DNA of 64,000 nt from Acidobacteriaceae bacterium (GTDB lineage: Bacteria > Acidobacteriota > Terriglobia > Terriglobales > Acidobacteriaceae): the NCBI GenBank assembly GCA_003165795.1, contig PMWW01000146.1, positions 11,489 to 75,488 on the forward strand, in the 5' to 3' direction. The notes under the pieces are model-generated. The model was not told the origin of the DNA, ran no database searches, and saw only the letters and a list, made by a program, of their open reading frames with translations. Of the stretch, positions 1 through 28,390 are shown one piece after another (the stretch's first letter is position 1; each line of letters starts with the position of its first letter). The position numbers were made by a program, and so were the translations under genes.

Positions 1-552
1 AGTCTTGGCTTCGGTCATGGTGACAACCGCTCGCGCCAATGCGCCCTCGGTGACCGGACAGTCAAGCAGCAGTTGTACATTGATGGTGCCAGTGCAGAGC
101 GCGGTTTCGGTCACGGACTCCGGCGTTTCGCGCCAAGTGGTGGGATCGCCTGCGCAGGCAGCGTTGCCCTGCACCCCGGCAGTCACGACCGCAGTCACCC
201 ATATGTCATCCTCACCGCGCTGGACGGCCATGGCATAGTTCATGTTGGCCGCGGTCCCCATGGTCGCGACGCACTCCGGATCGAGATCGAGCTCCCGGCA
301 AACCGCGCGATGGTACTCTTCCAGCCCCAGCTTCATCATGCAAGCGTGGCGCTCGTGATGGGCCGATCCTTCGCAACTTTGGTGGTTCACTAAGTAACGT
401 ATGCTGTCCGACTGACCGCCATTGCAAGCGGAAGTGCTGAGGACGCGATGAGGCGTCAGCAGCGCCATCACCAGGAACCGGCCCGAACGGCGGAGGGAGA
501 AGGCCGGACCTTCGAGTAGAGTTTCCCAGTGCATAGGAACCATAGAGATCAT
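1..552 (-). CDS. CbiZ-like adenosylcobinamide amidohydrolase (N-terminal part; gene runs off the window start)
   Basis: Not in the ORF track because it is edge-truncated. My own minus-strand translation gives ...RVLSTSACNGGQSDSIRYLVNHQSCEG...TMGTAANMNYAMAVQ...VTAVVTAGVQGNAACAGDP...GTINVQLLLDCPVTEGALARAVVTMTEAKT. This fits the CbiZ-family motifs I remember (S..nGG, TAGv.NA..aGD, GTIN, TEAK). ATG start candidates lie at 534-552. Same strand as, and downstream of, the acs genes. Confidence 0.5.
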   Translation of the reverse strand, partial: MISMVPMHWETLLEGPAFSLRRSGRFLVMALLTPHRVLSTSACNGGQSDSIRYLVNHQSCEGSAHHERHACMMKLGLEEYHRAVCRELDLDPECVATMGTAANMNYAMAVQRGEDDIWVTAVVTAGVQGNAACAGDPTTWRETPESVTETALCTGTINVQLLLDCPVTEGALARAVVTMTEAKT

Positions 553-712
553 AACAAGCGGTAGTCCGTTGATGGACTTGGCCGACCGCCGGGCAGCCGC
601 CGGATACTCGGGAAAAAAGGTGGCCGTCAGCGAAAAGTGGTGGCAAGAAAGTCAGCGGCCGCTCTCAACAGCCGCTGACCGGGTCAGGAGATCGAAGATC
701 AGTCGTTCAGTC

Positions 713-1618
713 TTACGCGTTCGCGTTAACCGGGAGGGCCCGCGCCACCTTAGCCATAGCCGTAATGTGGGCCGGAGTGCTCCCGCAGCAGCCACCGATA
801 ATGTTGGCGCCGGCTTGCACCAACTCGGCCACAAAGGAAGCCATGAGTTCGGGCGTCTCCTTGAATACCGTCTTGCCGTCTTCCATGACCGGCGGACCGG
901 CGTTGGCATGGATAAGAATCGGTACGTTGGGCGCGGCAGCCCGCATTTGCCGCGTGATTTCGATCATGTTGGAAATGCCATTACCGCAGTTGGCGCCTAC
1001 GATATCGGCTCCCGCCGCTGCCGCTACCTTGGCCGCGCGATCAGGCTTGACTCCCATCATGGTACGGAAACCCTTGATGCCCGGCTCGAAGGCGAAGGTG
1101 CAGATCACCGGCAGTTTGGTATTTTCCTTGGTGGCTTTGATGGCCTGCTCGGCTTCCACCACAGAGGACATAGTCTCTATGCAAATGGCGTCAGCCCCAC
1201 CTTCGGCCAGAGCAACTACCTGGGCCTTGAACGCTTCATACAACTGCTCGGCGGTGGTATCGCCGCCCTCCTCGATCACGATGTGCCCGGTTGGACCCAC
1301 CGACGCGGCTACATAGCCCTTGTCGCCCATGGCATGTTTCGCCAGCTTAGCGGCGGCAACGTTGATTTCATGGACCTTGTCGGACAGTCCATAACCCTTC
1401 AGTTTGAACGAAGTGGCGCCGAACGAATTAGTTTCCACTACGTCGGAACCGGCGGTTACGTACGCCTCGGCGATTTCTTCTACCTCTTTGGGATGGCTGA
1501 CGCACCACGATTCGGGGCATTCCCCTCCTTCCATCCCTTTGGCAAACAGGAAGGTACCCATAGCTCCATCGGAGATAAGGATCTCGCCTGCCTTGATACG
1601 TTCCAAAAGACTCTTCAC
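713..1618 (-). CDS. Stand-alone homocysteine S-methyltransferase domain protein (MetH N-terminal/BHMT-type, Zn-thiol methyltransferase)
   Basis: 301 aa. ISDGAMGT...ETNSFGA...DAICIETM...GANCGNG...IGGCCGSTPAHI match the S-methyl_trans TIM barrel with its Zn-binding Cys (C...CC). The start overlaps the RACo stop by 4 nt (1615-1618). Confidence 0.8.
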   Translation of the reverse strand: MKSLLERIKAGEILISDGAMGTFLFAKGMEGGECPESWCVSHPKEVEEIAEAYVTAGSDVVETNSFGATSFKLKGYGLSDKVHEINVAAAKLAKHAMGDKGYVAASVGPTGHIVIEEGGDTTAEQLYEAFKAQVVALAEGGADAICIETMSSVVEAEQAIKATKENTKLPVICTFAFEPGIKGFRTMMGVKPDRAAKVAAAAGADIVGANCGNGISNMIEITRQMRAAAPNVPILIHANAGPPVMEDGKTVFKETPELMASFVAELVQAGANIIGGCCGSTPAHITAMAKVARALPVNANA

Positions 1619-3483
1619 GATGCTTTCCTCCTTCGACTTTCAAATGTTTCTGCTACCGTTGGAAACTGCTCCAAGTCCGTGTGGGGAAGGAATAGAGCCT
1701 TCACATAGCTGTCCATGTATTGCGGATTGGAGCTCATATCGACATAGGTTATGCGGGCGGCAATCTCCGCCAGACGACGGCGATGCTCCCGCGACAGCAG
1801 CGCAATATACGCGCCAGTAAGAGAAGAATTCCCGATGTAACGGAACCGGTCCAGCGGCAAGTCGGGCAGCATGCCGATGAAAACCGCGTCCGCGATCCGC
1901 ATGTATCGCCCAAAGCCGCCCGCGATGTAGACGCGAGCGACAGCGTCCCAAGTGAGGCCGACGTTTTCGAGAACCAGTGAGCAGGCGGCATAGATCGCCG
2001 CTTTGGTGCGGATCAGGTTCTCCAAGTCAGCCTCGGTGATTACCAGGTCCTTGCCGGTCCGGGTTTGCTCGGCAGTGGCCAACCGGAACGCGCGGCGACT
2101 GTCTTGTTGCACGATCCGGCCCGTGCCGGGTGACTCGAAGAAGCGGCCGGAGCGGTCCACAACTTCCTGCCGAAACAGTTCGCCCACCAGCGAGATGAGA
2201 CCGGATCCGCAGATGCCTGCCGGCTTGCCGCCACCGATCACGGAGAACTCTAAGCGGGCCCCGTTGTCGCCAATAGCCACCCGCTCGATGGCGCCTTCGG
2301 CCGCCCGCATTCCGCACTTAATTCCCGCTCCCTCGAACGCCGGACCCGCCGAGCAGGCGCAAGCCACCATCCAATCCGCATTGCCGATTACGATCTCGCC
2401 ATTGGTACCAATATCCATGAAGAGAAAGACATCGTGGGCGTTGGTAGACAAGTCGGTGCATAACAGGCCGGAAGTAATGTCGCCTCCGACGTAGCTGCCC
2501 ACGCCGGGGGCACAAACCACGATGGCCTGCGGATCGATATTTAGGCCGACGTCCTGGGCGCGCAGTTCGGGAACGGAGTTCACCGTCGGGACGTAAGGCG
2601 CCTCCCGGATGTAGCGCGGAGGCAAACCGAGCAGCAGGTGAGTCATGGTCGTGTTGCCGGCAACAAAGGCCGCGCGAATGTTCTGCGGCTCAATCGAAAT
2701 TTCGCCGGCCAGCTGCCGGACCAGACCATTGATGGTTTCCAGCACCAGGCCGCGGAGTTCCTCCAGGCGTTCCGGATTGCGGGCGTAGTCGATGCGACTG
2801 ATTACGTCCGACCCCCGCCGGATCTGCAGATTGTAGGAAGTCTGCGTGGCCAGCAACGATCCGTCATCCAAGTCAATCAGTTGCACCGCCACGGTGGTGG
2901 TGCCGATATCGACGGCCAAACCGAGCGGATGCTCGGGGCTGTCCCCCGCTTGCACATGGCGGACGCGCAACCCCGATGCGGATTCCTCGACGCCAACCGT
3001 GATGTCGCCATTGGCGGCCCGAACCGCTTCCGCCAACTCGCGCAGCACCGTGAGCTCGCTAGTGATGGGAGCAGGCCCGCCATTACGGCTCAATTCGCGG
3101 GTGAGGCGTGTCCAATCGCTATAGTGCTCCTCGATGGAAGCCGGCGGCACGGCCAGCCGCTGGTTTCGGTACAGCGGCGTGAGGCGGTCCCGGTCCGGCA
3201 GCAGCTTGGGGTCGATCAGGGAATGGCTGTCGCCCAGCACCCGTAATCCCTGTTGGCTGCGATCGGGCAGCCGTACCACAATGTCTGACACGACTTTGGT
3301 CTGGCAAGCCAGAACGGAGGTCGGGCGTCCCTCCACTTCTACGGAACACAACCCGCAGGAACCTTCGCCTCCACACGGCAACTCCAAGTCGAGGATGCCG
3401 GCACGCAACGCTGCCTCGTGGATCAGCGTTCCGGCCGGCACCTCGGCCACGACGTTGGCGGGCTGGAAGCGAACCGATGGCAT
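1615..3483 (-). CDS. RACo/AcsV-type ATP-dependent reductive activator of corrinoid proteins (2Fe-2S ferredoxin domain plus ASKHA ATPase domain)
   Basis: 622 aa. N-terminal plant-type ferredoxin motif LPCGGEGSCGLCSV...LACQ. ASKHA phosphate motifs AVDIGTTTVAV and FMDIGTNGEIVIG. Lies 4 nt downstream of acsC. Confidence 0.85.
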   Translation of the reverse strand: MPSVRFQPANVVAEVPAGTLIHEAALRAGILDLELPCGGEGSCGLCSVEVEGRPTSVLACQTKVVSDIVVRLPDRSQQGLRVLGDSHSLIDPKLLPDRDRLTPLYRNQRLAVPPASIEEHYSDWTRLTRELSRNGGPAPITSELTVLRELAEAVRAANGDITVGVEESASGLRVRHVQAGDSPEHPLGLAVDIGTTTVAVQLIDLDDGSLLATQTSYNLQIRRGSDVISRIDYARNPERLEELRGLVLETINGLVRQLAGEISIEPQNIRAAFVAGNTTMTHLLLGLPPRYIREAPYVPTVNSVPELRAQDVGLNIDPQAIVVCAPGVGSYVGGDITSGLLCTDLSTNAHDVFLFMDIGTNGEIVIGNADWMVACACSAGPAFEGAGIKCGMRAAEGAIERVAIGDNGARLEFSVIGGGKPAGICGSGLISLVGELFRQEVVDRSGRFFESPGTGRIVQQDSRRAFRLATAEQTRTGKDLVITEADLENLIRTKAAIYAACSLVLENVGLTWDAVARVYIAGGFGRYMRIADAVFIGMLPDLPLDRFRYIGNSSLTGAYIALLSREHRRRLAEIAARITYVDMSSNPQYMDSYVKALFLPHTDLEQFPTVAETFESRRRKAS

Positions 3484-3487
3484 GGCT

Positions 3488-4828
3488 TTACCGTGCGTCT
3501 TGGATCTTCATGTACGAGCCGAGATCCGAGGCCTCACCCGGACCAACCAGCACCTCCCAGCCGGGCAAGCCTTCCTCGATTTCGCCGCTGATTTGCGAGA
3601 CATAGCCGGGAATGATGATGCGGTGTTTTCCCTGGTCGGCAAGGTCAGTGGCCTTCACCGCATTAGCCACCTTTTCGCCCGAGAACTTGCCCGCGGCCCA
3701 TCCCGTTAGCACGCTCATGCCTTCGGTATCCACGACGAGTAAGTTCGCCGGGATGCCCGAGTTTTCAATTTCGCCGGAGACCAGGAAGTAGGTCAGGGAG
3801 AAATTGGTGGTGACCAGCACCGGAGAGTCCTTGCCGGTCTCGCCGATGGGATAGACCTTGGGATCGACCTGAATCGGCTTCTGCGGGTCGGTGTAGATGT
3901 TCTGCCGCAGCATCATCAAAGGCAGCAGGACTTCGAGCTTGATGCGGTCGAGCACTACGATGGACCCGTATTTGCACAGGAAAGTCGAGGCATCGGCAAC
4001 CACCGACGCGTCGTCCAGCGCGGTCACGAAGTTAATGATGGGATAGCCCAGCGGCTCGAAGGAATTCTTCAGCGCCGCCTTGCGGATGAGGGTGTTGTAC
4101 TGCAAGGTGGCTGCGGGATTGTCGGCCGGCAGGTCGAGCACGATGTCCTTCAGCCCCAGAGCGGCCAACTTGGTGGTCAGGGCCACCAACTCGTCGATGG
4201 TGGCCGCGCGGGCCACAATCGGCGCATCATACTTCAACGCCAAGGCCGCGACGGCATCGGCGTTAGCCGGGGTGGCGGCGTGAATCAAGGGCCGCTGGCC
4301 TGGCAACTCTTTCAGCCCGGCTTCCAGCGCGTCCAGGTTCGAGCTCCGCAGGATAATGCCCATGCCGGTAGAACCCGCTGCGGTCTTCACCAGATCGACG
4401 AAGGGTTTGACCTCTTCGCTGAAGTTGTCGACCAGCACCAGGTTGACGCGCAGTTGCTCGCCTACCCGTTCCAGGCAATAGTCCCGCACCTCGGCGATGC
4501 CGTGGCCACAATTGGAGAGCGGCTCATTGTCGGCAAAAGCGATGGCGATGGCGGTGGGGTGAACAAAGGTTTTGTCGTGGCGGAACATGACCGTCTCGTT
4601 GCCGATCAGGACTTCGCGTTCCGGCGGTCCGATCTTCACCAGGCGGATGGGCGGCTTGCTGGCCGCCCCGACAGTTTTGATGGCTTCTTCCGAAGCGTAA
4701 GGACAAGCCGCAAGTTCGGCGTTCTTGGCGGCCAGCTTCATGGCGAAAGCCATGCAGGTGGGTACACCACACTCGCCGCAGTTGGTCTTGGGCAGCAGCT
4801 TAAAGATTTGTAAACCAGTCATTGCCAT
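3488..4828 (-). CDS. acsC: Corrinoid iron-sulfur protein large subunit (AcsC/CdhE)
   Basis: 446 aa. N-terminal 4Fe-4S motif KTNCGECGVPTCMAFAMKLA...ACPY followed by TIM-barrel and corrinoid-binding parts. Lies 12 nt downstream of the acsB-acsD ORF. Confidence 0.9.
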   Translation of the reverse strand: MAMTGLQIFKLLPKTNCGECGVPTCMAFAMKLAAKNAELAACPYASEEAIKTVGAASKPPIRLVKIGPPEREVLIGNETVMFRHDKTFVHPTAIAIAFADNEPLSNCGHGIAEVRDYCLERVGEQLRVNLVLVDNFSEEVKPFVDLVKTAAGSTGMGIILRSSNLDALEAGLKELPGQRPLIHAATPANADAVAALALKYDAPIVARAATIDELVALTTKLAALGLKDIVLDLPADNPAATLQYNTLIRKAALKNSFEPLGYPIINFVTALDDASVVADASTFLCKYGSIVVLDRIKLEVLLPLMMLRQNIYTDPQKPIQVDPKVYPIGETGKDSPVLVTTNFSLTYFLVSGEIENSGIPANLLVVDTEGMSVLTGWAAGKFSGEKVANAVKATDLADQGKHRIIIPGYVSQISGEIEEGLPGWEVLVGPGEASDLGSYMKIQDAR

Positions 4829-4840
4829 TTTGTGGTCACC

Positions 4841-7800
4841 TCACTTACCAGAGCACATCATTTCGTCAATCTTGCGCTTGAGGGTGCGAGCAGCCAGCGG
4901 GTGGTAAACCACCAGCAGGTCCGCTCCCGCATTCAGGTAACACGCCGCCGTGGCGATCTCCAGCAGGGCTTCGCGCTCGTCTTCGCTTCCCCACAGGGGG
5001 AAGTCCTTACGTGCGGCCCGGCTCTCCTTCACCTTCGACACTTCAAAGCCGGAGTTCACCATCATGGGCATGGCCAGCATCGGATCGCCGGTAAAGGCCG
5101 AGGAGCGAATGCGTTCCATCACCGAGTAGGTGTATTCCAAGCCGTAGCCCACGGAGCTGGTCAGGGGATCGACGAGAATGTGGTCGGGTTGTACGCCCAT
5201 GGTGGTAAGCAGGATGTTGAGCTGCTTGCACATGTTGACGTCGATGGGAGTCTGCGCCACTACGCAGTGGCCGTAAGCCATGACGGTGGCGGCGATGGTC
5301 TTGTAGTTGTCGGTTTCCACCCAGTTCAACAGCAGGTTTTCTCCGGCAAAGGTGGAAGCGATGTGCTTCATCACGGAGTTGTTCTTTTCGAAGTGGCTGC
5401 AACCGGTAACGATTATCGGTACCCCCACCGCGCCCAGAATGTCCTTCACGATGTCGCCGGCCGCTTCCGCAGACATGTCGCCATTGTCAGGATGGCAGGT
5501 CGCCAGGCGGACACTGATGATTTCCGCACCCAGCTTCTCCACCAGATGGCGGGCCATGGCCTTCGGGTCCTTGAGCAGGTCTCCATAAGCGTTGCGCAGG
5601 AGATCAGGATACGACTTCGGCGGGCTGTCCAACACCTCCATGGCAATCACGGGTTTGTGACCCACGTTGCCCTCATAGTGGCGGAAGGGCAATACCTCAG
5701 CCCCGCCCAGGACGACCGACGAAGTGCGGGTCCCGCTGCCGCCCAGAGTGATGGTGCGGACGGCGACATTGGCTTTGTCCGGAACCACGGTCACTGACTT
5801 CGGCAACACGATGGCCGCCGAAGTGATGGGCCGTTCCACGCCTTCTGGTGGCGGCGCGGGCTTGGACGGGCGCGGCTTAACTTCGGCCGCTTTGGTTGGG
5901 GCGGCACTGGAGGCGGTGATCTGGGCTTCCAATTCCGCTTCGGTCGGCAGGCAGCTCGGACAGCTGTCCGTGGCAGGCACGGCGGCGGCCGAGGCCGAAG
6001 CTAACATGCCGGTTTGCATCAGCAGCATGTTGGCGCCGGCGTGCAGCAAGTGCATGGCAGTCGAGGCTTGCAGGACCGCCATCTGCTGCATCGGCGTCAT
6101 TCCCGGTTGAATCTCGGTGGCGGGAGGAGCGCTGCGCAGCTGTTCCAGTAGGCTGATAAGGGCCCCCATACCGTCATTACTTGGCGGAATGGGCGGTGCC
6201 GCTTGCCCGGCGGACGGCGCCGCAGCCGGGGACTTGGCCACGGGAGGCTTGGTACCCGTTGTACTGGCGGCGATGGTCGTCGTCGGCGTCGCAGCCGGAG
6301 GTTCGGCCACCGCTACGGCGGTATCGGCGACGGTGGTGGTCGAGGCCCCTCCACCCGAGGCTGCAGCTTGTACCACGGCGCCGCGGGCAGCGTCGACGGC
6401 GGCAGCTTCCTCTGACGGAGTGGTAATGTCCCACATTGTCAGAGCAGGGTGGCTAACCTTCTCCATGAAGGCCTGCACCGAGGTGATATCGGTACCGTTG
6501 GTCTCGTCGGCGATCAGGTCGGTGAAGTTTTCGACGCCAAAGGTCTTGCCGACTTTGTCGAGATCTTCCCGCAGAAAGTCCTTGAGGTCTTTGGGCATCC
6601 AGACAATGCGCTTGTGGCCGCCCTCGGCGGAGATGAACTTACGGCTGGTGATGTAGGCCTTGCCTACGCCGACGAATCCCGGTACCTGCTGACCGCCGCC
6701 GGCCGTGTTCGCTAGGGTGGAAAACTTCATCCCAGCGGGCGTTTCGCCCAGGTATTCGCGATTCACGATCATGACCCCGTTGACTTCCGGCATCAAGGCC
6801 ACGATGGCCTCGAAGCAGCCGCAACTGGTCATGGGATCTTCCAGCAGCGAGTAAGCGTTGAAGCGGGCCAGCGTCTGCTTGGAATTGGCGTAAACGTAAT
6901 CGTTGATGTTGGCCCACTGCCCGCGCACGGGATCGATGCACTCGCCTTTGATCAGCGGCTGATTGGGGCCGGTAGGATCGATCTCGTAGGCCGCCTTGCC
7001 GTCCAGCCAGTTGTAGGCGCCGCACAATCCCAGCCGTTCCGGGGTGATGACGCAAACATGGTTGGGAGCGAAGCTCTGACAGAGCAGGCAGGAGTAGAAG
7101 GTATCGACGCTCTCGTCGGTAAGCGACTCCATGCGTTGATTGCGGGCGCGATAGGAGTGGCGGGCGACGTCGATCCGCTCGGTTACATCTTTGGCGTCGG
7201 TGAACAGTGTCACCTGCACCTTGTCCACGATGGCGGGATAGTCGTTCAGGAACTTGGCATGCAGGATCTCGCCCAGGTGACGGATCTTGAAGCCCTTGTC
7301 CTTAGCGCCCTTGCTGATACGGATCCAGTTGATGTCGCGCTGACCCATGTGCCAGATACCTTCGGCGCCATTGATCAAGTGATGGATCTGGCGTTCGAGA
7401 ATCGGCTCGAAGTCAGGCTGCATTTTGCGCCCGGCAACTTCCACCCAAATGCCGATGGGCAGTGCGGGCAGCTCTTTGCTGTCGGGGTCGACTACAACAT
7501 CGTCGATTTCGGGGCCGACCACGGTGATCTTGCCGTCTTCCACCTCGGTGATATCCAGCGTGGTGACGTACTCGAAGCCCGGCGTCTTGTTGCCGCCGAA
7601 CTCGACGTAGGTTTGCTCCTTGCGGATGCGCTCGCCTTCGAAGGCGGCGCCAAACGCCACCGGGATGGGCACCTTGGCGACTTTGATCTTGCAGCCGCGG
7701 ACTTCCAGGCACTTCTCCACGATGTGGTCGATGGGCACGTTGGAGACAACATGCTCGTAGGTACAAATGCCGGTGGGCAGGATCTGCGGAATGTCAGTAT

Positions 7801-8617
7801 CGGCAATGGTGGGAAAGCCGTAACTGATCGCGCCCGCGGCGGCGGCGTATTTCTCTTCGGTCACTTCGCCTAGCGCCATAACGAAGGCGAAAGTGCGGTT
7901 CTTATTGTATTTAAGATTGCGTGCGTAATCGCCCGGCTTGACTCCGCCGAAGCTGAGGGCCACGCGGTTGGCAAATCCCAAGGCATAGACCGCTGCCGAG
8001 ATCTCCTTACCGAAGGGCACCAGCCGGGTATCCCAACCTAGTTCAACCTCCGCCTCCGCCAACTGCTCGGAGAAAGATGTGCCGTGACTATGCCCGGCCA
8101 TGAAGACGTAAAGGTTCTTCTCTTGCAACTCGCGGGCGATGCGGACGGCGTGCTCGACCGACGGTGCGGCGCCCACGATGGCAGCGAAGCCGGGGGCGGA
8201 GCCGTCGACAAACTCGACACCGCGTTCGCGAATGATCACGTCATTGGCTGCTCCCAGCCAGATGCCGTTGACCGGATTGGGGCCGATGAGATATTTGCAA
8301 GCCTCGATAATTTCGAAGGCGAACAGAGTGGCGATACCCGAATCGAGGGTGCCACCCAGGTAAGGTAACCAGTTATTGTCGCTGGGTACGGCCGGCAGCA
8401 GCCGGTTGCACTCATCGAGAATTTTCTGCATGTCCGAGAGCCGGTCCACTCGTTCGCCCAACAGCGAGTAAATGACCGGCAGGGAGTAAGCGGTGTCTGG
8501 AAAGCCCACTTCACAATCGCTGCCTTTGGCCGCGATGGCTTTTGCCAGGTAGTCTTCCGCGTCGCGCACAATCTGGTGGGCGCCGCGGATTGCCGACGAT
8601 GCGATGATTTTGCTCAT
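4841..8617 (-). CDS. acsB: Fused acetyl-CoA synthase (AcsB) and CFeSP small subunit (AcsD) joined by a low-complexity linker
   Basis: 1258 aa uninterrupted ORF. Residues 1-735 (nt about 6412-8617) are ACS, with the A-cluster motifs SCLLCQSFAPNHVCVITPERLGLCGA and MTSCGCFEAIV. Residues about 740-930 (nt about 5820-6400) are an Ala/Pro/Thr/Met/Gln-rich linker. The last about 320 aa (nt 4841 to about 5820) look like AcsD/CdhD (...VIAMEVLD...IISVRLATCHPD...VPIIVTGCSH...VDPLTSSVGYGLEY...). Confidence 0.85.
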   Translation of the reverse strand: MSKIIASSAIRGAHQIVRDAEDYLAKAIAAKGSDCEVGFPDTAYSLPVIYSLLGERVDRLSDMQKILDECNRLLPAVPSDNNWLPYLGGTLDSGIATLFAFEIIEACKYLIGPNPVNGIWLGAANDVIIRERGVEFVDGSAPGFAAIVGAAPSVEHAVRIARELQEKNLYVFMAGHSHGTSFSEQLAEAEVELGWDTRLVPFGKEISAAVYALGFANRVALSFGGVKPGDYARNLKYNKNRTFAFVMALGEVTEEKYAAAAGAISYGFPTIADTDIPQILPTGICTYEHVVSNVPIDHIVEKCLEVRGCKIKVAKVPIPVAFGAAFEGERIRKEQTYVEFGGNKTPGFEYVTTLDITEVEDGKITVVGPEIDDVVVDPDSKELPALPIGIWVEVAGRKMQPDFEPILERQIHHLINGAEGIWHMGQRDINWIRISKGAKDKGFKIRHLGEILHAKFLNDYPAIVDKVQVTLFTDAKDVTERIDVARHSYRARNQRMESLTDESVDTFYSCLLCQSFAPNHVCVITPERLGLCGAYNWLDGKAAYEIDPTGPNQPLIKGECIDPVRGQWANINDYVYANSKQTLARFNAYSLLEDPMTSCGCFEAIVALMPEVNGVMIVNREYLGETPAGMKFSTLANTAGGGQQVPGFVGVGKAYITSRKFISAEGGHKRIVWMPKDLKDFLREDLDKVGKTFGVENFTDLIADETNGTDITSVQAFMEKVSHPALTMWDITTPSEEAAAVDAARGAVVQAAASGGGASTTTVADTAVAVAEPPAATPTTTIAASTTGTKPPVAKSPAAAPSAGQAAPPIPPSNDGMGALISLLEQLRSAPPATEIQPGMTPMQQMAVLQASTAMHLLHAGANMLLMQTGMLASASAAAVPATDSCPSCLPTEAELEAQITASSAAPTKAAEVKPRPSKPAPPPEGVERPITSAAIVLPKSVTVVPDKANVAVRTITLGGSGTRTSSVVLGGAEVLPFRHYEGNVGHKPVIAMEVLDSPPKSYPDLLRNAYGDLLKDPKAMARHLVEKLGAEIISVRLATCHPDNGDMSAEAAGDIVKDILGAVGVPIIVTGCSHFEKNNSVMKHIASTFAGENLLLNWVETDNYKTIAATVMAYGHCVVAQTPIDVNMCKQLNILLTTMGVQPDHILVDPLTSSVGYGLEYTYSVMERIRSSAFTGDPMLAMPMMVNSGFEVSKVKESRAARKDFPLWGSEDEREALLEIATAACYLNAGADLLVVYHPLAARTLKRKIDEMMCSGK

Positions 8618-10563
8618 TGCAGTTCGCGCCTCGATTTCATGTCGTACATCTTGCGTTCCTTTTGAGTATTGATGTGGAGTGCATCGCGCTTGCGCTCGAT
8701 GTGGGCTAGCATCTTGTCGGCTGCGACTACCGGATCAGGCTCCCACTCGAAGCGTCCGCCGGTAATGCTTTCCATCTCACTGCACAGCAGGTCGTGGACG
8801 TTCTTGCTGCCCTCGACGTAGAGAGGATGGCCGAGCACGACATACATTCCGCTAGCTACGAAGTAATGGCCGATAGCGACGGCCTTCTCGCTCATCCATT
8901 CCGGCGCGGCGCCGGCCACGGGCAGGTCGGCGATGTCATCGCCCAGACCGCCTTCGGCTACCAGGTTAGTGGCTGCCATCAGGATGCGGCTGTTGTCGAC
9001 GCACGAGCCCATGTGCAAGACGGGAGGAATGCCGACCGCCTCGCAGACTTCGCGCAAGCTGTCGCCGGCCTGGGCCAGCGCGGCTTCCGGTGTCAGCAGC
9101 CCCGCCTTGGCACAGGCGATGGCGGCGCACCCGGTTTGCAGCACCAGCACGTTACGCTTGATCAATTCCTGGGCCAGCCTGACGTGGCCCTGATCGGCCA
9201 CTACCTTGGGATTGCTGCATCCGATGATGCCGGCCACGCCGCGAATGCGGCCATCGATGATGGCATCGTTCAGCGGACGGAAAGTACTGCGGAAGCGGCC
9301 GCCCAGCATGTGAAAGATGGTTTCGTTGGAGAAGCCGGCCACCAGTTCCATTGACTCGTTGGGAATGTGGACGCGTTGCGGATCGCGATTTTCGAAGTTG
9401 TCGATGGCCTTGCGAATCAGCTCGCTGGCTTGCTCGTAACCGGTGTTCGAGTGGAACGTGATCTGCTCGGCTTCGGCGGTGTGGGCGATCTCCGAGGTGC
9501 TGACCAGTTGGGTGTGGAAGCACTTGGAGACTTGCGCCAGCGATGGCATCACGCACTGCACATCGATCACCATGACTTCTACTGCACCGGTAAGAATGGC
9601 CAGCTCCTGTTGCAGGAAGTTGCCCACGATGGGCAGCCCATGGCGCATCAGAACTTCGTTGGCGGTACAGCAGATGCCGGCAACATTGATTCCCTCGGCG
9701 CCCTTGGACTTCGCGTAATCGATCAACTCCTGGTCCCCGGCGGCCACGGCCAGCATCTCTGACAATGTGGGTTCGTGTCCGTGGACGATGATGTTGACTT
9801 TGTTTCCAGCCAGCACGCCCAGGTTCACCCGGCTGCGCACCGGCTTGGGAGTGCCGAAGAGAATGTCTGACACTGTGGTAGCGATGGCCGAGCCTACCCA
9901 GCCGTCAGCCAGGCTGCACTTTAATCCACCCATGATCAGATGGCGATAGTCGTGGTCAACGCCCATGTTGGTGCGATGCATCAGCTCCACCACCGCGGAG
10001 TCGATGCCATTGGGATTGATGTTTAGCTTGTTCCACACCGCCTGGCGTTTTTCCGGGGCCAGCTTCAGGGTGGCGTTGGGCTCTTCCGACCAGGCGAATT
10101 GGGTCAGAAAGAAGTCCGCCAGATCGCTGGCGATGGTCAGGTCGTCTTTGCCTTCGGTAGCAATCTCGAAGAAACGCGCCGCCTCGTGCAAGCGCAGTGG
10201 CTCGACGATTTTGTAGTCGCCGCCTTTGCCCTGCGACACCGCCTTGAGGGTGCGCACCAGCATGCGGCCATGGTCGGAGTGAGCGGCAGTACCGGCGGCA
10301 ATCTCACGCAGCAGGTTGCGCGCAGTAATAGTATCGGCGTCGGCGCCGCAAATGCCGAGGTGGGCTTTGGGGGTGATGCGGCAAGGGCCCATGTGACACA
10401 GCCGGCAGCAAACGCCGTCTGTGCCGAACTTACACTGGGGTTTTTGCAGCTCATAGCGGTCGAAGACCGTACTTATCTCGGCTGCACCCGCAATGCTTAC
10501 CATATCGATTGTTGCTGGGTCCGTCGAAACCGGTAACCCTGCTTTTCGACCGGTGGTCGCCAT
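8614..10563 (-). CDS. acsA: Ni-Fe carbon monoxide dehydrogenase catalytic subunit (CooS/AcsA)
   Basis: The track ORF 8614-10761 carries a 66-aa Arg-rich extension. The likely start is the internal ATG at 10561-10563 (MATTGRKAG...), which overlaps the cooC stop as ATGA. CODH motifs CKFGTDGVCCRLCHMGPCRI, plus IVHGHE and CTANE regions. The stop overlaps the acsB start (8614-8617). Confidence 0.9.
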   Translation of the reverse strand: MATTGRKAGLPVSTDPATIDMVSIAGAAEISTVFDRYELQKPQCKFGTDGVCCRLCHMGPCRITPKAHLGICGADADTITARNLLREIAAGTAAHSDHGRMLVRTLKAVSQGKGGDYKIVEPLRLHEAARFFEIATEGKDDLTIASDLADFFLTQFAWSEEPNATLKLAPEKRQAVWNKLNINPNGIDSAVVELMHRTNMGVDHDYRHLIMGGLKCSLADGWVGSAIATTVSDILFGTPKPVRSRVNLGVLAGNKVNIIVHGHEPTLSEMLAVAAGDQELIDYAKSKGAEGINVAGICCTANEVLMRHGLPIVGNFLQQELAILTGAVEVMVIDVQCVMPSLAQVSKCFHTQLVSTSEIAHTAEAEQITFHSNTGYEQASELIRKAIDNFENRDPQRVHIPNESMELVAGFSNETIFHMLGGRFRSTFRPLNDAIIDGRIRGVAGIIGCSNPKVVADQGHVRLAQELIKRNVLVLQTGCAAIACAKAGLLTPEAALAQAGDSLREVCEAVGIPPVLHMGSCVDNSRILMAATNLVAEGGLGDDIADLPVAGAAPEWMSEKAVAIGHYFVASGMYVVLGHPLYVEGSKNVHDLLCSEMESITGGRFEWEPDPVVAADKMLAHIERKRDALHINTQKERKMYDMKSRRELQ

Positions 10564-11330
10564 CAGTTTTTCTCCTGTTGATTGGTAAATAACTTGGCTA
10601 ATAAATCGTTCATGGCTATGCGCGCCGGGGAGCCCGGCGCAATCGTGGAAACCGGCACGCCGTCGGCATCGAGGGCGGCAACGTCCTGGTCCAGTGGAAT
10701 GCTGGCCAGCAAAGTAAGTCCTGTAGCTTTGACGGCCTCGGCAATAGCCTCGGGCAGGCATCCTCCGGGCACGCGATTGACGATCAGGCCGCGTTGTTTG
10801 GTAGGCAGGGCGACTTCATCGGCCAGCGCCGAGATACGTCCCGCGGTCCTAATTCCCCGCACCGTACAGTCGGAAACAATCAGCAGATAATCTACGGAGA
10901 GCAAGGTGCGGCGGGAGATATGCTCCAAGCCAGCTTCGCTGTCGATGACGATGTTGCGGTAGTTGCTGGCCAGGCGGTCCAGCACCTCACGCAATACATT
11001 ATTGGCAAAGCAGTAACAACCCTGGCCTTCGGGCCGGCCCATCACGATCAGGTCATAGCCCTTCTGTTCTACCAGAGCTTCCTGCACGCGCAGGTCGAGA
11101 AACTCTTGCTTGGAGACGCCTTTCAGCGCGGTTGCTTCCTTGCGGGCGCTTTCGCGAATGCCGCCCACGGTTGCGCAATAGGCAATGCCCATCGCCTCGT
11201 TCAGGTTGGCATTGGAGTCGGCATCGACCGCCAGCACCGGCGACTCGCCGTGCGTCGCCAGCCAGCTCAGGGTGAGAGCCGCCAGCGTTGTCTTCCCTAC
11301 CCCACCTTTTCCTGTCATTGCCAAAATCAT
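10563..11330 (-). CDS. cooC: CooC-type Ni-insertion ATPase (CODH maturation)
   Basis: 255 aa. Deviant Walker A GKGGVGKTT, CxC metal motif GQGCYCF, MinD/ParA fold. Confidence 0.85.
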   Translation of the reverse strand: MILAMTGKGGVGKTTLAALTLSWLATHGESPVLAVDADSNANLNEAMGIAYCATVGGIRESARKEATALKGVSKQEFLDLRVQEALVEQKGYDLIVMGRPEGQGCYCFANNVLREVLDRLASNYRNIVIDSEAGLEHISRRTLLSVDYLLIVSDCTVRGIRTAGRISALADEVALPTKQRGLIVNRVPGGCLPEAIAEAVKATGLTLLASIPLDQDVAALDADGVPVSTIAPGSPARIAMNDLLAKLFTNQQEKN

Positions 11331-11419: not shown

Positions 11420-12499
11420 TTAAGCGCCCGTACCGATCAAGGCTGGGGCGCCAATTTCCTGCCGCAGCTTGGTGCTCATTTGGTGCAGCGTTTGGAAAAC
11501 CAATTCAGCGTCGGCGACCGGCAGCGATCCCGTGCCACAAGACGGCGTGATGAACGATTGCCGGCAAATGAGCTGCGTATCCAACCCCGTTATCTTGGCC
11601 AGCTTCTCGATCAGTGCGCAAAACTTGGCGACCAGCGAATCGACCGTCTGGGCATGGATTTTGGCGCTGTTCGTGGGCACGATTCCGACCGCCAGCGCCT
11701 TTCCAGCTTTAAGGTGCGCCTTGAAGTTGTCGGGATAGAGCAGAATGGTTTCGCCATAATCAAAGGCATCAAAGTTAATGATGTCCACACCCGCATCCAT
11801 CAGGATCGGCCACTCGGTATTGCCGCAGCAATGCACTCCCGACAGGGCTCCCTCGGCATGGATCGCCTCAATTACTTCACCCAGTTTGGCCACGGTGTCG
11901 TCGCGGGTCACGCTGACATAAGTGGAGGAGCCGAAGGCGGACAGGATGGGCTCGTCTACAAAGCAAATGACTTTCTCGGCGTAGGGCTGGAACTTGCGAA
12001 TCTGCCAGCGACATTTCATGGTCAATCCCTTGACCACCACGTCGACGAATTCCGGATTGTAGTAAATCGCCCGTTTTTTCTCGTCCACAATGCTGAGGCC
12101 GACGCTGAGCGGGCCCGTGGTCTGTACCTTCACGAAGGGACGCTTGATGCCGGAAGCTTTGAGGGCCGCCTCCATGGCATAAATGCCTTTCGAGAAGTCA
12201 GGGGTGATGCGAAAAGCCTCGAGGTCGTCGGCGCAGAACTTTTCGTAAAACTCCGCCAGGTCCTGGCTGGTGTCGCCGGTGGTGTCGAAGTACATGCGGC
12301 CCTTCACCGGGTCGAGGACCACCCGCGGAATGCCTTCGCTGTACTGGATTTCCATCTGTTCATGAAGCCCGAAGGCCGGCAGCTGCGGCCAGATCGGCGC
12401 GTTGGGGATGTTCTCTAGAACGACTTTGACGGCCTGCTCTGGATCTTTGTGAGGCAAGCTGCCGATTGCGGTAGCGGTACAGCAGGGCTCGAAACTCAT
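11420..12499 (-). CDS. Core-MetE-like (Meth_synt_2, single barrel) Zn-dependent methyltransferase; candidate folate-independent methionine synthase (Mes-like)
   Basis: 359 aa. MetE C-terminal-barrel motifs TAIGSLPHKD, FVDEPIL, GVHCCGN (His-x-Cys) and ITPSCGTG. No N-terminal folate-binding barrel. The start overlaps the stop of the upstream CooC-like gene (12496-12499). Confidence 0.7.
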   Translation of the reverse strand: MSFEPCCTATAIGSLPHKDPEQAVKVVLENIPNAPIWPQLPAFGLHEQMEIQYSEGIPRVVLDPVKGRMYFDTTGDTSQDLAEFYEKFCADDLEAFRITPDFSKGIYAMEAALKASGIKRPFVKVQTTGPLSVGLSIVDEKKRAIYYNPEFVDVVVKGLTMKCRWQIRKFQPYAEKVICFVDEPILSAFGSSTYVSVTRDDTVAKLGEVIEAIHAEGALSGVHCCGNTEWPILMDAGVDIINFDAFDYGETILLYPDNFKAHLKAGKALAVGIVPTNSAKIHAQTVDSLVAKFCALIEKLAKITGLDTQLICRQSFITPSCGTGSLPVADAELVFQTLHQMSTKLRQEIGAPALIGTGA

Positions 12500-13296
12500 A
12501 ACACGCTCTCTTTCTCGGTGCAGTACGACTGCAATGTTTTCTGAAGCGATCGGAATGGATTGAGTAAATCCGGATAGCCCAGGTCGACCAGCGCTACACC
12601 CTGGCGGTCAGCCCGAGCTATGCGTACATCGAGGGGAATGGTGCCGAGCAGGTGCTCGGCCCCGAACTCGGAGGCGATCCAGCGGCTATCTTCTTCCGGA
12701 TCGGCGGTCTTGTTGAGCACCACGCCGAAGCGTCCGATGCCCAGATCGGCGGACATCTGGCGGACCCGCTCGGCGGTCTCCACGCTGCGCTTGCCCGGCT
12801 CGACCACCACCATCATTAAGTCCACACCCATGGCTGTGCCGCGCCCCAGGTGCTCGATGCCGGCTTCCATGTCGAGGATCACGATCTCGCCGTGGCGCAG
12901 TACCAGATGCGAGACCAGGCTTTTCAGCAGCACGCTCTCCGGACAGGCGCAGCCGCCGAGAGCGTGCTCCACCGCGCCCAGCACCAGCAGGTCGACTCCC
13001 TTGTAATGGACGGCGTATTTCTCGGCGATATCGGCAACTTCAGGATTGATCTTGAACATCTGCCCGAACTGCTTGACTTTGGCGCCGGTGCGCTCTTCGA
13101 TCAGCTTGCGTTCGGTGGAAATGGTGTGGACTTGAGAACGGAGTTCGGAAGGTAAGCCGATGGCGGAAGCCAGATTTGCGTCGGGGTCGGCGTCAACTGC
13201 TAATACCCGGTGACCGTCGGCCGCATACAGCCTGGCCAGGGTTCCCGCCACGGTGGACTTTCCGACTCCGCCTTTGCCTGAGATTGCAAGTTTCAT
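12496..13296 (-). CDS. Second CooC/AcsF-type Ni-insertion ATPase
   Basis: 266 aa. GKGGVGKST Walker A, CxC motif LGGCACPES. The start overlaps the GntR stop (13293-13296). Confidence 0.85.
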   Translation of the reverse strand: MKLAISGKGGVGKSTVAGTLARLYAADGHRVLAVDADPDANLASAIGLPSELRSQVHTISTERKLIEERTGAKVKQFGQMFKINPEVADIAEKYAVHYKGVDLLVLGAVEHALGGCACPESVLLKSLVSHLVLRHGEIVILDMEAGIEHLGRGTAMGVDLMMVVVEPGKRSVETAERVRQMSADLGIGRFGVVLNKTADPEEDSRWIASEFGAEHLLGTIPLDVRIARADRQGVALVDLGYPDLLNPFRSLQKTLQSYCTEKESVL

Positions 13297-14129
13297 GGTT
13301 CGAGCCTCGATCGAGCAATGTGTATGCCGTACTGCTTGCGGCGGCGCCGGGACGACACCGAAGTGTTCTTCCGGGCGCTCTCCTGGTCGCGGATGACCTG
13401 TTCAACGGCCAGCATGGCGAAGCCGACGATTTCTTCGGAAGAACGCCGCGCCGCCAGTGGATTGCGCTGTTCGATGGCCTCGGTCAGCTTGCGGTACTCT
13501 TCCAGTTCGAGGGCCACGGATGCCGGCAAGAGCAAGGTGTAGGAAAGAGCCACCCGATAAGGGGCGTGGATGGTGGCATTCAATTGCCGGAACAACGGAT
13601 TGTGCGAGGCGGCAACCACCGCAGTGTGATACTGCAGGTCCGCGTCGATGGCCCCTTCCAGGTCCTGAGCTGCCAGGATCTCCAGCCGCCGCGACAGACA
13701 CTGACGAATGCAGGCAATCTCCTCCTGATCGGCGCGCAGCGCGGCGAATCCGGAAGCAATCGGTTCAATCGCCAAGCGGACTTCGCACAGGTCGCGCAGG
13801 AAGCGCGCATCCGGTTTCAGCTCCGACTGCCAGGCGAGAATGTCGGGATCGAGTTGGTTCCAGTCGGTGCGGGGCCGGGCGCGCGTCCCGGAGCGGGGAC
13901 GCACCTGCACCATGCCCTTGTTTTCTAAAACCTTGACCGCTTCGCGCAGGATGCTGCGGCTTACCCCCACCTGTTTACACAATTCCGCTTCGTTGGGGAA
14001 GGCGATCTGTTGCTCGTTCCGCTCCGCTTGGATGACCTGCAGGGCCAAGGCCCGGGTCACCCGGCTGTGCAGACTTTCGGTGGTGTCGAGCTGCGCGAAT
14101 AATGTAGCGGGTCCCTTCATCTCAGTCAT
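13293..14129 (-). CDS. GntR-family transcriptional regulator with FCD (FadR C-terminal) ligand domain
   Basis: 278 aa. Winged helix-turn-helix ...FPNEAELCKQVGVSRSILREAVKVLENKGMVQVRPRSGT... followed by an all-helical FCD-like domain. First gene of the acs operon. Confidence 0.85.
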   Translation of the reverse strand: MTEMKGPATLFAQLDTTESLHSRVTRALALQVIQAERNEQQIAFPNEAELCKQVGVSRSILREAVKVLENKGMVQVRPRSGTRARPRTDWNQLDPDILAWQSELKPDARFLRDLCEVRLAIEPIASGFAALRADQEEIACIRQCLSRRLEILAAQDLEGAIDADLQYHTAVVAASHNPLFRQLNATIHAPYRVALSYTLLLPASVALELEEYRKLTEAIEQRNPLAARRSSEEIVGFAMLAVEQVIRDQESARKNTSVSSRRRRKQYGIHIARSRLEP

Positions 14130-25042: not shown

Positions 25043-25225
25043 AACTTCCCCCTCGGAAGTTCGTTAGGTTTTTCACCGGGCCGGTCTCCTGACTCAGGAC
25101 CCAACCTGTCACCTTCCCGCTGGGCGCAGTGGTTGTCGACAGTTGGTGCTTCGTCCTTTACAGTTGCGGGGCAGTGGCGGATTCTTACCGCGCTTCCCAT
25201 ACACCCTGTGAATTCAGTGGTTGTC
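25043..25225 (-). promoter_or_regulatory. Cobalamin riboswitch 1 with an RBS-sequestering helix, upstream of the btuB-like receptor
   Basis: The minus strand reads ...GGGAAGCGCGGTAAGAATCCGCCACTGCCCCGCAACTGTAAAGG...CCACTGCGCCCAGCGGGAAGGTGAC...AGTCAGGAGACCGGCC (B12 box). It is followed by AACTTCC-GAGGG-GGAAGTT abutting the ATG (25043-25061). Confidence 0.85.
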
Positions 25226-27489: not shown

Positions 27490-28040
27490 GCCGGCACCGC
27501 CATTGCCTGCTTGATAACGAGGGGGCAGCCGGCGACTAGCAGAATGACTTCGTCCGCGGCGGCGGCGATACGCTGGTTCACGCCGCCCAGCAGATCGCGG
27601 TAGGTGCGGGCCATCTCATTAGCGGGGACGATCCCGCTGCCCACCTCATTGGAAACCAGCACCACGGAGCCGGAGACGCCCAGCAGCACCTGGGCCAGGC
27701 GATCGGCGTGGGCCAGAACGCGGGCCCTGTCCGACGCCTCGTGCTCCATCAGGTTCGCGGTCCATACCGTGAGGCAGTCGATCACGATGGTGTCGAACTG
27801 GCCGCCGCACTGCAGCAGAGCGTCTTCCAGCAAAATTGGGGCTTCGATGGTCGTCCACCCGGCCGGCCGCTCGGCACGATGCTTGGCGATACGATCGCGC
27901 ATCTCGTCATCGCCGGCTTGGGCCGTAGCCAGAAAGGCCACGCGCCGGCCGCGGGTGGCGAATTCCTGCGCGTACTGGCTCTTCCCGCTGCGAACACCAC
28001 CCAGCACCAGAACGATTCTTCGGCCCACGTCTTCAGCCAT
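27486..28040 (-). CDS. cobU: Bifunctional adenosylcobinamide kinase / cobinamide-phosphate guanylyltransferase
   Basis: 184 aa. P-loop LGGVRSGKSQYAQ, then ...VIDCLTVW..., ...VLVSNEVGSGIVP... Confidence 0.85.
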   Translation of the reverse strand: MAEDVGRRIVLVLGGVRSGKSQYAQEFATRGRRVAFLATAQAGDDEMRDRIAKHRAERPAGWTTIEAPILLEDALLQCGGQFDTIVIDCLTVWTANLMEHEASDRARVLAHADRLAQVLLGVSGSVVLVSNEVGSGIVPANEMARTYRDLLGGVNQRIAAAADEVILLVAGCPLVIKQAMAVPA

Positions 28041-28164
28041 ACTTCATCCCGCGCACAAGTCACGTCTCGGACGGGAAAGCTCGTGCCGCAAATCTTCCAG
28101 AAGACCCTAGCGAGCAGGTCGTCAAGATGCCGATTGACCCTCCCATCGAGACCAAATCGGACAA

Positions 28165-28317
28165 TAGGTAAGTGCCTGGCCGGAATCCTGACTTGCGCCT
28201 CAGCGATCCGGAACCGCCTTCCTAGAACCTTTAGCTCCAGTGGCTTGCTGGTCGGACCTCCGCGCTTACAGTTGCGGGGCAGTGGCGGATTTTCACCGCG
28301 CTTCTCAACTGCCAGAC
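28165..28317 (-). promoter_or_regulatory. Cobalamin riboswitch 2, leader of the cobU-cbiA-btuF operon
   Basis: The minus strand reads ...GAGAAGCGCGGTGAAAATCCGCCACTGCCCCGCAACTGTAAGCG...GCCACTGGAGCTAAAGGTTCTAGGAAGGCGG...AAGTCAGGATTCCGGCC (B12 box). The core is near-identical to riboswitch 1. Confidence 0.85.
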
Positions 28318-28323
28318 ATTCCG

Positions 28324-28352
28324 GTTATAGCTCCCGGAAAATGCGGTGTCAA
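28324..28352 (-). promoter_or_regulatory. Sigma70-like promoter P1 (TTGACA-17-TATAAC) just upstream of riboswitch 2
   Basis: The minus strand reads TTGACA ccgcattttccgggagc TATAAC. The -35 is at 28347-28352 and the -10 at 28324-28329. Confidence 0.6.
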
Positions 28353-28390
28353 TCTTCGTCATATGATCGGCGTACAACTTGAGGGTAGCT

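Follow-up and report, generated by a model that had tools for sequence, protein, structure and literature searches.

The locus

A stretch of 64,000 nucleotides from an Acidobacteriaceae bacterium (assembly GCA_003165795.1, contig PMWW01000146.1), called the window below, carries near its first position a gene for a small protein that resembles the homocysteine-binding module of methionine synthase (MetH). This protein, HcyMT, is encoded at the 3' end of an operon that also specifies a carbon monoxide dehydrogenase (CODH), an acetyl-CoA synthase (ACS), both subunits of a corrinoid iron-sulfur protein (CFeSP) and the corrinoid activase RACo. The operon occupies the minus strand from 14129 to 713 in the order GntR/FCD regulator, CooC, MesB-like protein, CooC, CODH, AcsB~AcsD, AcsC, RACo and HcyMT, and the junctions among these nine genes are overlapping or nearly abutting. 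Its genes and flanking features are as follows.

1..552, minus: cbiZ, incomplete at the window start, opening a downstream corrinoid-salvage run (PF01955, E = 1.2e-33)
651..679, minus: hairpin resembling a terminator, 34 nt past the HcyMT stop, GTCAGCGGC, 11-nt loop, GCCGCTGAC, then TTTCTT (sequence reading)
713..1618, minus: HcyMT, MetH-type homocysteine-binding/zinc methyltransferase barrel, stand-alone, GTG start, 301 aa (PF02574)
1615..3483, minus: RACo/AcsV-type ATP-dependent corrinoid reductive activase, 622 aa, stop overlapping the HcyMT start (Pfam)
3488..4828, minus: AcsC, CFeSP large subunit (Fe-S domain and CdhD/corrinoid-binding part), 446 aa (PF04060, PF03599)
4841..8617, minus: AcsB~AcsD fusion, 1258 aa (CODH_A_N, CdhC, ACS_CODH_B_C and CdhD, Pfam)
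8614..10563, minus: CODH, Ni-CO dehydrogenase catalytic subunit, likely the 649-aa form starting at 10563 (PF03063 Prismane, E = 2.7e-171)
10563..11330, minus: CooC-type Ni-insertion ATPase (CbiA/AAA_31/ParA P-loop family matches)
11420..12499, minus: MesB-like protein of 'core-MetE' fold, 359 aa, putative second methylcorrinoid:thiol methyltransferase (weak NCBIfam match, fold, ligand spacing)
12496..13296, minus: second CooC/AcsF-like ATPase, stop overlapping the MesB-like start (CbiA/ParA/Fer4_NifH matches)
13293..14129, minus: GntR/FCD regulator, head of the operon (PF00392, PF07729; same place in the related locus L085)

Sequence and fold of HcyMT

HcyMT is encoded by a genuine gene and not by a chance open reading frame (ORF), since the index of a public assembly collection lists an identical protein in 98 blocks, homologues at 72–96% identity number in the hundreds and the AlphaFold2 (AF2) model is confident (pLDDT 92.7). 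The PF02574 domain (S-methyl_trans) spans residues 14–291 of the 301 (E = 5.4e-68, 230 bits for a cut-off of 22), and the Pfam scan found no second domain in the protein. Its two zinc motifs, GANCG (Cys211) and GGCCG (Cys277/278), align with GINCS and GGCCG of Thermotoga maritima MetH, and the three cysteines are invariant in an alignment of 160 homologues. These results bear out the initial annotation of this DNA, which had described a 301-aa protein made only of the S-methyl_trans barrel and carrying GANCG...GGCCG. The homocysteine-pocket motifs D17-GAMGT and IE148TM also align with counterparts in T. maritima MetH, within its homocysteine module.

The best sequence match of HcyMT in the PDB is this same homocysteine domain (E = 3.5e-43), ahead of BHMT (2e-20) and MmuM (1e-13). 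A Foldseek search with the AF2 model gave TM-scores of 0.89 for MetH (3bol, root-mean-square deviation 1.5 Å), 0.80 for BHMT and 0.76 for MmuM, and its top 14 matches are all MetH homocysteine domains. HcyMT thus shares with the MetH module (residues 1–566 of the T. maritima enzyme; 1Q7M, 3BOL, 3BOF) a (beta/alpha)8 barrel with 33% identity, a Cys3 zinc site, the DGAxGT and ET(F/M)S pocket motifs and, presumably, the chemistry. It differs from MetH in being a separate protein devoid of pterin-binding, cap, B12 and activation domains. The stand-alone family also displays invariant GxC34PExW38 and AIC146IETM motifs, whose Cys34, Trp38 and Cys146 are absent from T. maritima MetH and may be a partner-docking or a second metal/redox feature.

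Every NCBIfam match of HcyMT is sub-threshold. The best one is to the N-terminal half of the YitJ-type fusion of a homocysteine methyltransferase with methylenetetrahydrofolate reductase (MTHFR), covering profile positions 2–287 of the 611 of NF006396 (279 bits, cut-off 453); neither this match nor Pfam revealed the C-terminal MTHFR domain of that type. A truncated YitJ was considered and rejected, as the homologues are conserved at full length (295–301 aa). PRK07534, named 'betaine--homocysteine S-methyltransferase', scores 244.6 bits for a cut-off of 338, and PRK09485 scores 101.3 for a cut-off of 215.

In MetH, the zinc-bound homocysteine thiolate attacks methyl-Co(III), yielding methionine and Co(I), and isolated homocysteine modules are able to use exogenous methylcobalamin. 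Sequence, fold and motifs indicate that HcyMT is a MetH-type and presumably methylcorrinoid-dependent homocysteine methyltransferase. If the partner is left general, the assignment as a methylcorrinoid:homocysteine methyltransferase is very probable.

The RACo junction and the end of the operon

RACo possesses all four domains of its family, i.e. Fer2, RACo_linker, Raco_middle and RACo_C_ter (E = 6e-101). It obtains 597.6 bits with the NCBIfam AcsV model, under the cut-off of 800, so that it does not formally qualify for this name. The gene begins, with ATG, 4 nt past the acsC stop. At the minus-strand junction with HcyMT, GGAGGAAAGCATCGTGAAG, the GTG of HcyMT overlaps the TGA of RACo by 4 nt (GTGA), and a Shine-Dalgarno-like GGAGG is located 8 nt upstream of this GTG. 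Both the overlap and the 4-nt spacing had been pointed out in the initial annotation and are confirmed by this reading.

The hairpin found after HcyMT has a stem of 9 bp and probably marks the end of the operon, to judge from its sequence; the automated hairpin scan omits it because its loop exceeds 8 nt. The promoter and terminator scan was uninformative, its match counts not being above those of shuffled sequences. The cbiZ gene begins 161 nt downstream of the HcyMT stop.

Conservation of the association

HcyMT homologues 52–93% identical to that of the window were surveyed in 80 species-representative genome loci, with one copy per genome. The genes were called by the survey's own ORF picking, in which high-GC antisense ORFs sometimes displaced genes, and the key architectures were confirmed by Pfam-annotated tables. 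Corrinoid-system genes lie within 10 kb of HcyMT in about 62 of the 80 loci. The arrangement MesB-like/CooC/CODH/AcsB~D/AcsC/RACo/HcyMT is kept in 22 Acidobacteriota loci, to which three truncated ones can be added, and four Lentisphaeria-type loci have the order HcyMT-MesBlike-CooC-CODH-ACS. About 22 other loci place HcyMT beside small corrinoid proteins (PF02607 + PF02310) and short RamA-like activases that are 29–35% identical to the window RACo; URO-D-family or MtaB methyltransferases, DUF1638, CobW and a Met_synt_B12-like protein are also found in these neighbourhoods. Ten Terriglobia loci carry HcyMT 1.5–5 kb from genes for formyltetrahydrofolate synthetase (FTHFS), MTHFR, an AcsE-type methyltransferase (NCBIfam PRK07535, 291–300 bits, cut-off 259) and FolD, and an eleventh (L052) has FTHFS and MTHFR nearby and no AcsE-type gene. 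The remaining 18 of the 80 have no relevant neighbours.

Of the 22 ACS-type Acidobacteriota loci, 21 retain the (G/A)TGA overlap between the RACo stop and the HcyMT start. A second survey covered 80 metagenome loci related to the Lentisphaeria-type copy of HcyMT. A MesB-like gene directly follows HcyMT in 28 of the 44 loci that have at least 1.3 kb of downstream sequence, and CODH is present in 14 of the 21 with at least 5 kb. Full Pfam-annotated operons were then retrieved through AcsC homologues and include the following.

L166, Planctomycete: HcyMT-MesBlike-CooC-(small ORF)-CooC-CODH-AcsB~AcsD-AcsC-RACo-DUF3786, then unrelated genes
L167, Lentisphaeria: gene order as in L166
L171, 2.5-Mb contig: CooC-MesBlike-CooC-CODH-AcsB~D-AcsC-RACo-DUF3786-HcyMT
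L168, Bacteroidota: MesBlike-CooC-CooC-Fer4-oxidoreductase-CODH-AcsB~AcsD-AcsC-RACo; cut upstream of MesB-like and hence uninformative on HcyMT
L170, Raymondbacteria: same core; no HcyMT within 10 kb
L085, related Acidobacteriota type: CooC and MesB-like fused; AcsD separate

Neither AcsE nor a small corrinoid protein was found in these six loci. At the operon level, AcsE is absent from the window operon and from seven Pfam-annotated operons of this AcsE-less type. HcyMT occupies various positions in them, either heading the operon (5' end) or following RACo or RACo-DUF3786. HcyMT is therefore a recurrent, positionally variable member of a distinct AcsE-less CODH/ACS operon of AcsB~AcsD type, and the survival of this linkage through rearrangements is the strongest evidence for a functional tie between HcyMT and CFeSP/RACo. 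A chance adjacency of HcyMT to ACS genes was rejected, given the overlap retained in 21 of 22 loci and the recurrence of the linkage in other gene orders. As they share the AcsB~AcsD fusion, the Acidobacteriota operons and those of the Planctomycetes/Lentisphaeria (PVC) type are connected, by descent or by transfer, and do not count as entirely independent inventions.

The DUF3786 protein encoded right after RACo (L166:13255-13854, L167:13413-14012, L171:13270-13893) has about 200 aa and no NCBIfam match, and is absent from the Acidobacteriota operon. UBA7540-type Terriglobia (among L027-L033, L039-L042 and L045; e.g. L040:3377-9422) carry HcyMT near FTHFS-MTHFR(+C-terminal domain)-AcsE-type-FolD, i.e. 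the methyl branch of the Wood-Ljungdahl pathway, and one such genome, SPRUCE 586, has been described as encoding this pathway (PMC12296737). Together with CFeSP and RACo, that set would give a complete 'MetH in pieces', the expression used in the initial annotation for a methionine synthase split into separate proteins. In L052, the gene divergent from the HcyMT orthologue, beside FTHFS and MTHFR, encodes a GntR protein 53% identical to the regulator of the window operon (L052:9096-9854), which hints at a shared regulator for modules supplying methyl groups to methionine.

According to the literature searched, neither a PF02574 gene as a member of an acs operon nor the AcsE-less operon type has been described; publications pairing 'homocysteine S-methyltransferase' with acs genes yielded only YitJ annotations, an unrelated arrangement. 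Split MetH enzymes and core methionine synthases fed by corrinoid iron-sulfur proteins are known (PMC5764234, PMC12478193, PMC7005905, PMC7857596). No description was found of what appears to be new here, namely the conservation of a MetH-type homocysteine module in an AcsE-less CODH/ACS operon and the operon type itself (AcsB~AcsD, MesB-like, two CooC, RACo, with or without DUF3786).

The other genes of the operon and its surroundings

The MesB-like protein has no Pfam match and matches weakly the NCBIfam methionine synthase model PRK00957 (E = 6e-5). The best folds retrieved with its AF2 model (pLDDT 79) are those of MetE (TM 0.50–0.58), then MesD, then URO-D. Its residues H223-x-C225, D244 and C321 show spacings of 2/19/77, compared with 2/19/76 in MesB (PMC7857596), and the Ser and Asp positions for binding the amino-acid moiety are conserved; to judge from these residues, it too should bind homocysteine or methionine. 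The family is highly conserved (more than 69% identity among the best 120 matches) and mostly annotated as hypothetical. Two cooC genes always flank its gene; in P0176/L085 the protein is joined to CooC in a fusion of 616 aa. As the MesB-like and HcyMT genes are co-conserved in more than 50 loci, simple redundancy of the two enzymes is unlikely; they could possibly have different corrinoid partners, work in opposite directions or form a complex.

AcsC is recognized by NCBIfam PRK04165 (530 bits, over the cut-off of 306). The AcsB~AcsD fusion joins an acetyl-CoA synthase (aa 10–731) to the CFeSP small subunit (approximately aa 945–1255) by way of an Ala/Pro/Thr-rich linker about 200 aa long, with 1047 bits for the NCBIfam model CODH_ACS_al_bet and 363 bits for the delta subunit. 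This fusion would tether CFeSP to ACS. It is also encoded by operons of other Acidobacteriota, Planctomycetes, Lentisphaeria, Bacteroidota and Raymondbacteria (1142–1392 aa) and is split in L085. The longest CODH ORF reaches 10761; the identical locus L081 has a 649-aa gene call.

The 64-kb window encodes no AcsE/PF00809 pterin-binding protein, MTHFR, MetH or MetE, all of which may exist elsewhere in the genome, and no PF00809 gene was found in L081 within 10 kb on either side. No small corrinoid protein (PF02607 + PF02310) is encoded within the window. In an Rfam scan, the region preceding the operon showed neither an S-adenosylmethionine (SAM) nor a methionine riboswitch; the only matches were three cobalamin riboswitches located farther upstream:

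25062-25223, minus: cobalamin riboswitch (Rfam)
28161-28331, minus: cobalamin riboswitch (Rfam)
32376-32570, plus: cobalamin riboswitch (Rfam)

The first two precede genes for a TonB-dependent receptor, ABC transport, CobT and CobC-like and CobQ/CbiA-like proteins (14.3–27.5 kb), and the third precedes an ORF without Pfam match (32951-33547). The surroundings of the ACS operon thus form an island for corrinoid uptake and salvage. A 224-aa ORF on the plus strand (27708-28382) has no Pfam match, overlaps a cobalamin riboswitch of the opposite strand and is probably not a gene. A PLP-dependent enzyme of Cys/Met metabolism (57845-59014, plus; PF01053, E = 1e-103), possibly homocysteine-forming, lies 44 kb off the operon and is not linked to it.

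A putative split methionine synthase fed by acetyl-CoA

The following scheme can be proposed for the function of HcyMT. Its zinc site (Cys211, Cys277, Cys278) would turn homocysteine into a thiolate, which would accept the methyl cation of a methyl-Co(III) corrinoid bound to a protein, giving methionine and Co(I). The corrinoid carrier would most likely be CFeSP, formed by AcsC and the AcsD domain fused to AcsB. In an operon that does not encode AcsE, ACS would cleave acetyl-CoA to methylate CFeSP, and the co-encoded CODH would dispose of the resulting CO by oxidation. The occasional Co(II) would be reduced again by the translationally coupled, ATP-dependent RACo. Overall, the system would be equivalent to a MetH whose folate module has been replaced by ACS. 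HcyMT is probably not exclusive to one partner and may also unload an MtaC-like protein methylated from methanol by MtaB.

We infer the partner, the direction of transfer and the methyl source, and give a probability of about 0.55 to the reading in which CFeSP, methylated from acetyl-CoA by ACS, is the methyl donor of HcyMT and RACo repairs its cobalt. Conserved membership of HcyMT in an AcsE-less CODH/ACS-CFeSP-RACo operon, in three gene orders, is what would be expected if CFeSP were the corrinoid module and RACo the reactivation module. AcsE, which is a TIM barrel like the homocysteine module, docks on the corrinoid domain of CFeSP. Six ACS-type Acidobacteriota loci (L010, L012, L022, L023, L025 and L034) have no MtaC/MtaB genes within 10 kb.

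Both halves of the proposed system have precedents. A route from acetyl-CoA through CoFeSP, the iron-sulfur protein with a corrinoid, to homocysteine was put forward for Dehalococcoides from labelling, in vitro activity with methylcobalamin and the absence of AcsE and MetF (PMC7005905, PMC7857596). In Dehalococcoides mccartyi, ACS would methylate CoFeSP from acetyl-CoA and the core-MetE enzyme MesB would pass the methyl group to homocysteine, as in the scheme considered here. The window operon also includes a MesB-like gene, but HcyMT has a MetH-type and not a MetE-type fold, both enzyme types are encoded together and CODH, which Dehalococcoides does not have, is present. Split MetH enzymes that combine a stand-alone PF02574 protein, a separate corrinoid protein and an ATP-dependent activase of the RACo/RamA family have genetic support (PMC5764234, PMC12478193). 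The three-part enzymes of Phaeobacter inhibens and Ruegeria pomeroyi use MtgE (PGA1_c13370), MtbC/MtgC as corrinoid protein and MtgD for pterin binding, along with RamA-like and DUF1638 proteins, and many HcyMT homologues sit in clusters of this type. By contrast, the window system belongs to a CODH/ACS operon with a two-subunit Fe-S CFeSP and a long RACo-type activase, and has no pterin-binding partner in the operon, so that its methyl source would be acetyl-CoA instead of methyl-folate. Compared with the acs cluster of acetogens (acsA-acsB-acsC-acsV-cooC-acsD-acsE; bioRxiv 10.1101/2024.06.21.600036), the operon shares CODH, ACS, AcsC, RACo/AcsV (the latter after acsC) and CooC, and differs by the lack of AcsE, the fusion of AcsD to AcsB and the MesB-like gene between two cooC genes; HcyMT lies at its 3' end, the usual position of acsD-acsE.

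Several observations weigh against this reading. The Raymondbacteria operon has no HcyMT within 10 kb, and in other Acidobacteriota the neighbours of orthologues 72–73% identical to HcyMT include a RamA-like activase and DUF1638 as well as a small corrinoid protein and a URO-D methyltransferase, but no ACS. When 160 HcyMT sequences are ordered by average linkage on p-distances, the context classes interleave along taxonomic lines, and no alignment column was found that separates ACS-linked from small-corrinoid-linked proteins; there is hence no sign of an adaptation of HcyMT to CFeSP. Interleaving and the lack of distinguishing columns make the family look like one generic homocysteine 'exit' module, placed beside whichever methyl-supplying system the organism uses. 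In addition, HcyMT looks redundant in the proposed scheme because the operon already encodes a MesB-like enzyme, whose family is predicted to take the methyl group from CoFeSP. Finally, the contig continues beyond window position 1, as seen in L081, whose HcyMT is identical (L081:11067-19124, CbiZ through DUF1638), with genes for CbiZ, CbiB, ATP:cob(I)alamin adenosyltransferase, a corrinoid protein (231 aa, B12-binding_2 and B12-binding domains, NCBIfam corrinoid-protein models), MtaB, a short RamA-like activase (517 aa) and DUF1638. The MtaC-like/MtaB/RamA-like/DUF1638 genes lie 3.4–8 kb downstream, starting 3.4 kb past the window start, and the same layout occurs in 15 of the 22 ACS-type Acidobacteriota loci.

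A methanol-fed donor is thus a serious rival or additional partner. In its strict form, HcyMT would serve the small MtaC-like corrinoid protein and not CFeSP, as the acceptor methyltransferase of a split methionine synthase charged by MtaB; reactivation would rely on the short RamA-like activase and DUF1638, and the position behind RACo would reflect only shared regulation within the corrinoid island. The L081 mtaCB/RamA/DUF1638 cluster indeed has no methyl-acceptor methyltransferase of its own, HcyMT overlaps the end of mtaB with its start inside an MtaC/URO-D/MtaB cluster in L044 and L046, RamA-like, DUF1638, small corrinoid and PF02574 proteins together form the set validated genetically in Phaeobacter (PMC5764234), and mtaB is expressed by peat Acidobacteriota (PMC10805028). 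However, HcyMT is translationally coupled to the CFeSP-type RACo and not to mtaCB, from which the hairpin and three corrinoid-salvage genes separate it; moreover, the six ACS-type loci listed above keep HcyMT in the ACS operon with no small corrinoid protein within 10 kb, as do all the Planctomycete and Lentisphaeria operons examined. Exclusive service to MtaC seems rather unlikely, though it is the most probable of the alternatives. Much less probable is an entry role, in which HcyMT or the MesB-like enzyme would replace AcsE by demethylating methionine or a methyl-thio compound onto Co(I)-CFeSP, ACS then combining the methyl group with CO into acetyl-CoA. This would account for the retention of a complete CODH/ACS with its maturation factors despite the absence of AcsE from the operon, and for the co-conservation of two thiol methyltransferases, left unexplained by mere redundancy; among corrinoid enzymes, MtsA is an example that demethylates thioethers. 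Nevertheless, methyl transfer from methylcobalamin to the homocysteine thiolate is strongly favoured in MetH chemistry and its reversal needs a hard pull, and the operon encodes neither transport nor catabolism of methylated sulfur compounds.

It is slightly less plausible still that HcyMT is a corrinoid-independent enzyme of the MmuM/YagD or BHMT kind, using S-methylmethionine, SAM or betaine and merely co-located with ACS. PF02574 includes such enzymes and PRK07534 and PRK09485 do match HcyMT below threshold, but both sequence and fold bring it much nearer to MetH (3.5e-43 against 2e-20 and 1e-13; 0.89 against 0.80 and 0.76). Furthermore, corrinoid-system genes lie within 10 kb in about 62 of 80 loci, the ACS/CFeSP linkage recurs in different gene orders, and according to Mausz et al. 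(PMC12478193) the rhizobial 'BHMT' type is to be read instead as MtgE, which supplies the homocysteine module in a split MetH. Least probable of all, and highly speculative, is a folate-free C1 route formed by the operon and the adjacent mtaCB cluster, with homocysteine/methionine as the soluble carrier of methyl groups from one corrinoid protein to the other: HcyMT would pass the methyl group of methanol-derived methyl-MtaC to homocysteine, the MesB-like enzyme would move it on from methionine to Co(I)-CFeSP, and acetyl-CoA would be formed by ACS/CODH. By analogy with the use of coenzyme M in methanogens, this would constitute a tetrahydrofolate-independent methylotrophic acetyl-CoA pathway; if true, it would explain both the two thiol methyltransferases kept together and the missing AcsE.

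The reading of CFeSP as the corrinoid module and RACo as the reactivation module, already put forward in the initial annotation, therefore gains from the MetH-type identity of HcyMT and from the conservation of the AcsE-less operon across phyla, and loses from the generic character of the module and from the possible mtaCB donor. HcyMT fits the idea of a 'MetH in pieces', which was already known for small corrinoid proteins (PMC5764234, PMC12478193). A reverse transfer from methionine, S-methylmethionine or methylthiols to feed ACS, also envisaged there, found nothing in its support, the conserved zinc-thiolate ligands pointing to a thiol acceptor. The pair formed by HcyMT and the core-MetE-like enzyme had been regarded as either redundant or opposite in direction; co-conservation in more than 50 loci speaks against mere redundancy. 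Common adjacency to RACo in organisms lacking CFeSP had been considered damaging to the proposal. The neighbourhood survey comes close to this situation, with an activase adjacent to HcyMT and no CFeSP in about ten loci, but these activases form a different, shorter subfamily (29–35% identical) and are accompanied by small corrinoid proteins.

Implications

If HcyMT unloads CFeSP, this widespread operon type, found in Acidobacteriota that abound in peat and soil and in Planctomycetes, Lentisphaeria, Bacteroidota and other anaerobes, would probably be an acetyl-CoA-fed methionine-synthase machine and not a carbon-fixing or acetogenic Wood-Ljungdahl pathway. The acsB/cdh genes scored as 'acetogenesis potential' in metagenomes, such as the metagenome-assembled genomes from the SPRUCE peat (PMC12296737), would then need to be reread. 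The co-conservation of two homocysteine-type methyltransferases is a question in its own right. The system would also be a clean one for studying how a TIM-barrel methyltransferase docks on CFeSP, and folate-independent methionine synthesis, so far tied to enzymes of the MetE fold (PMC7857596), would extend to the MetH fold.

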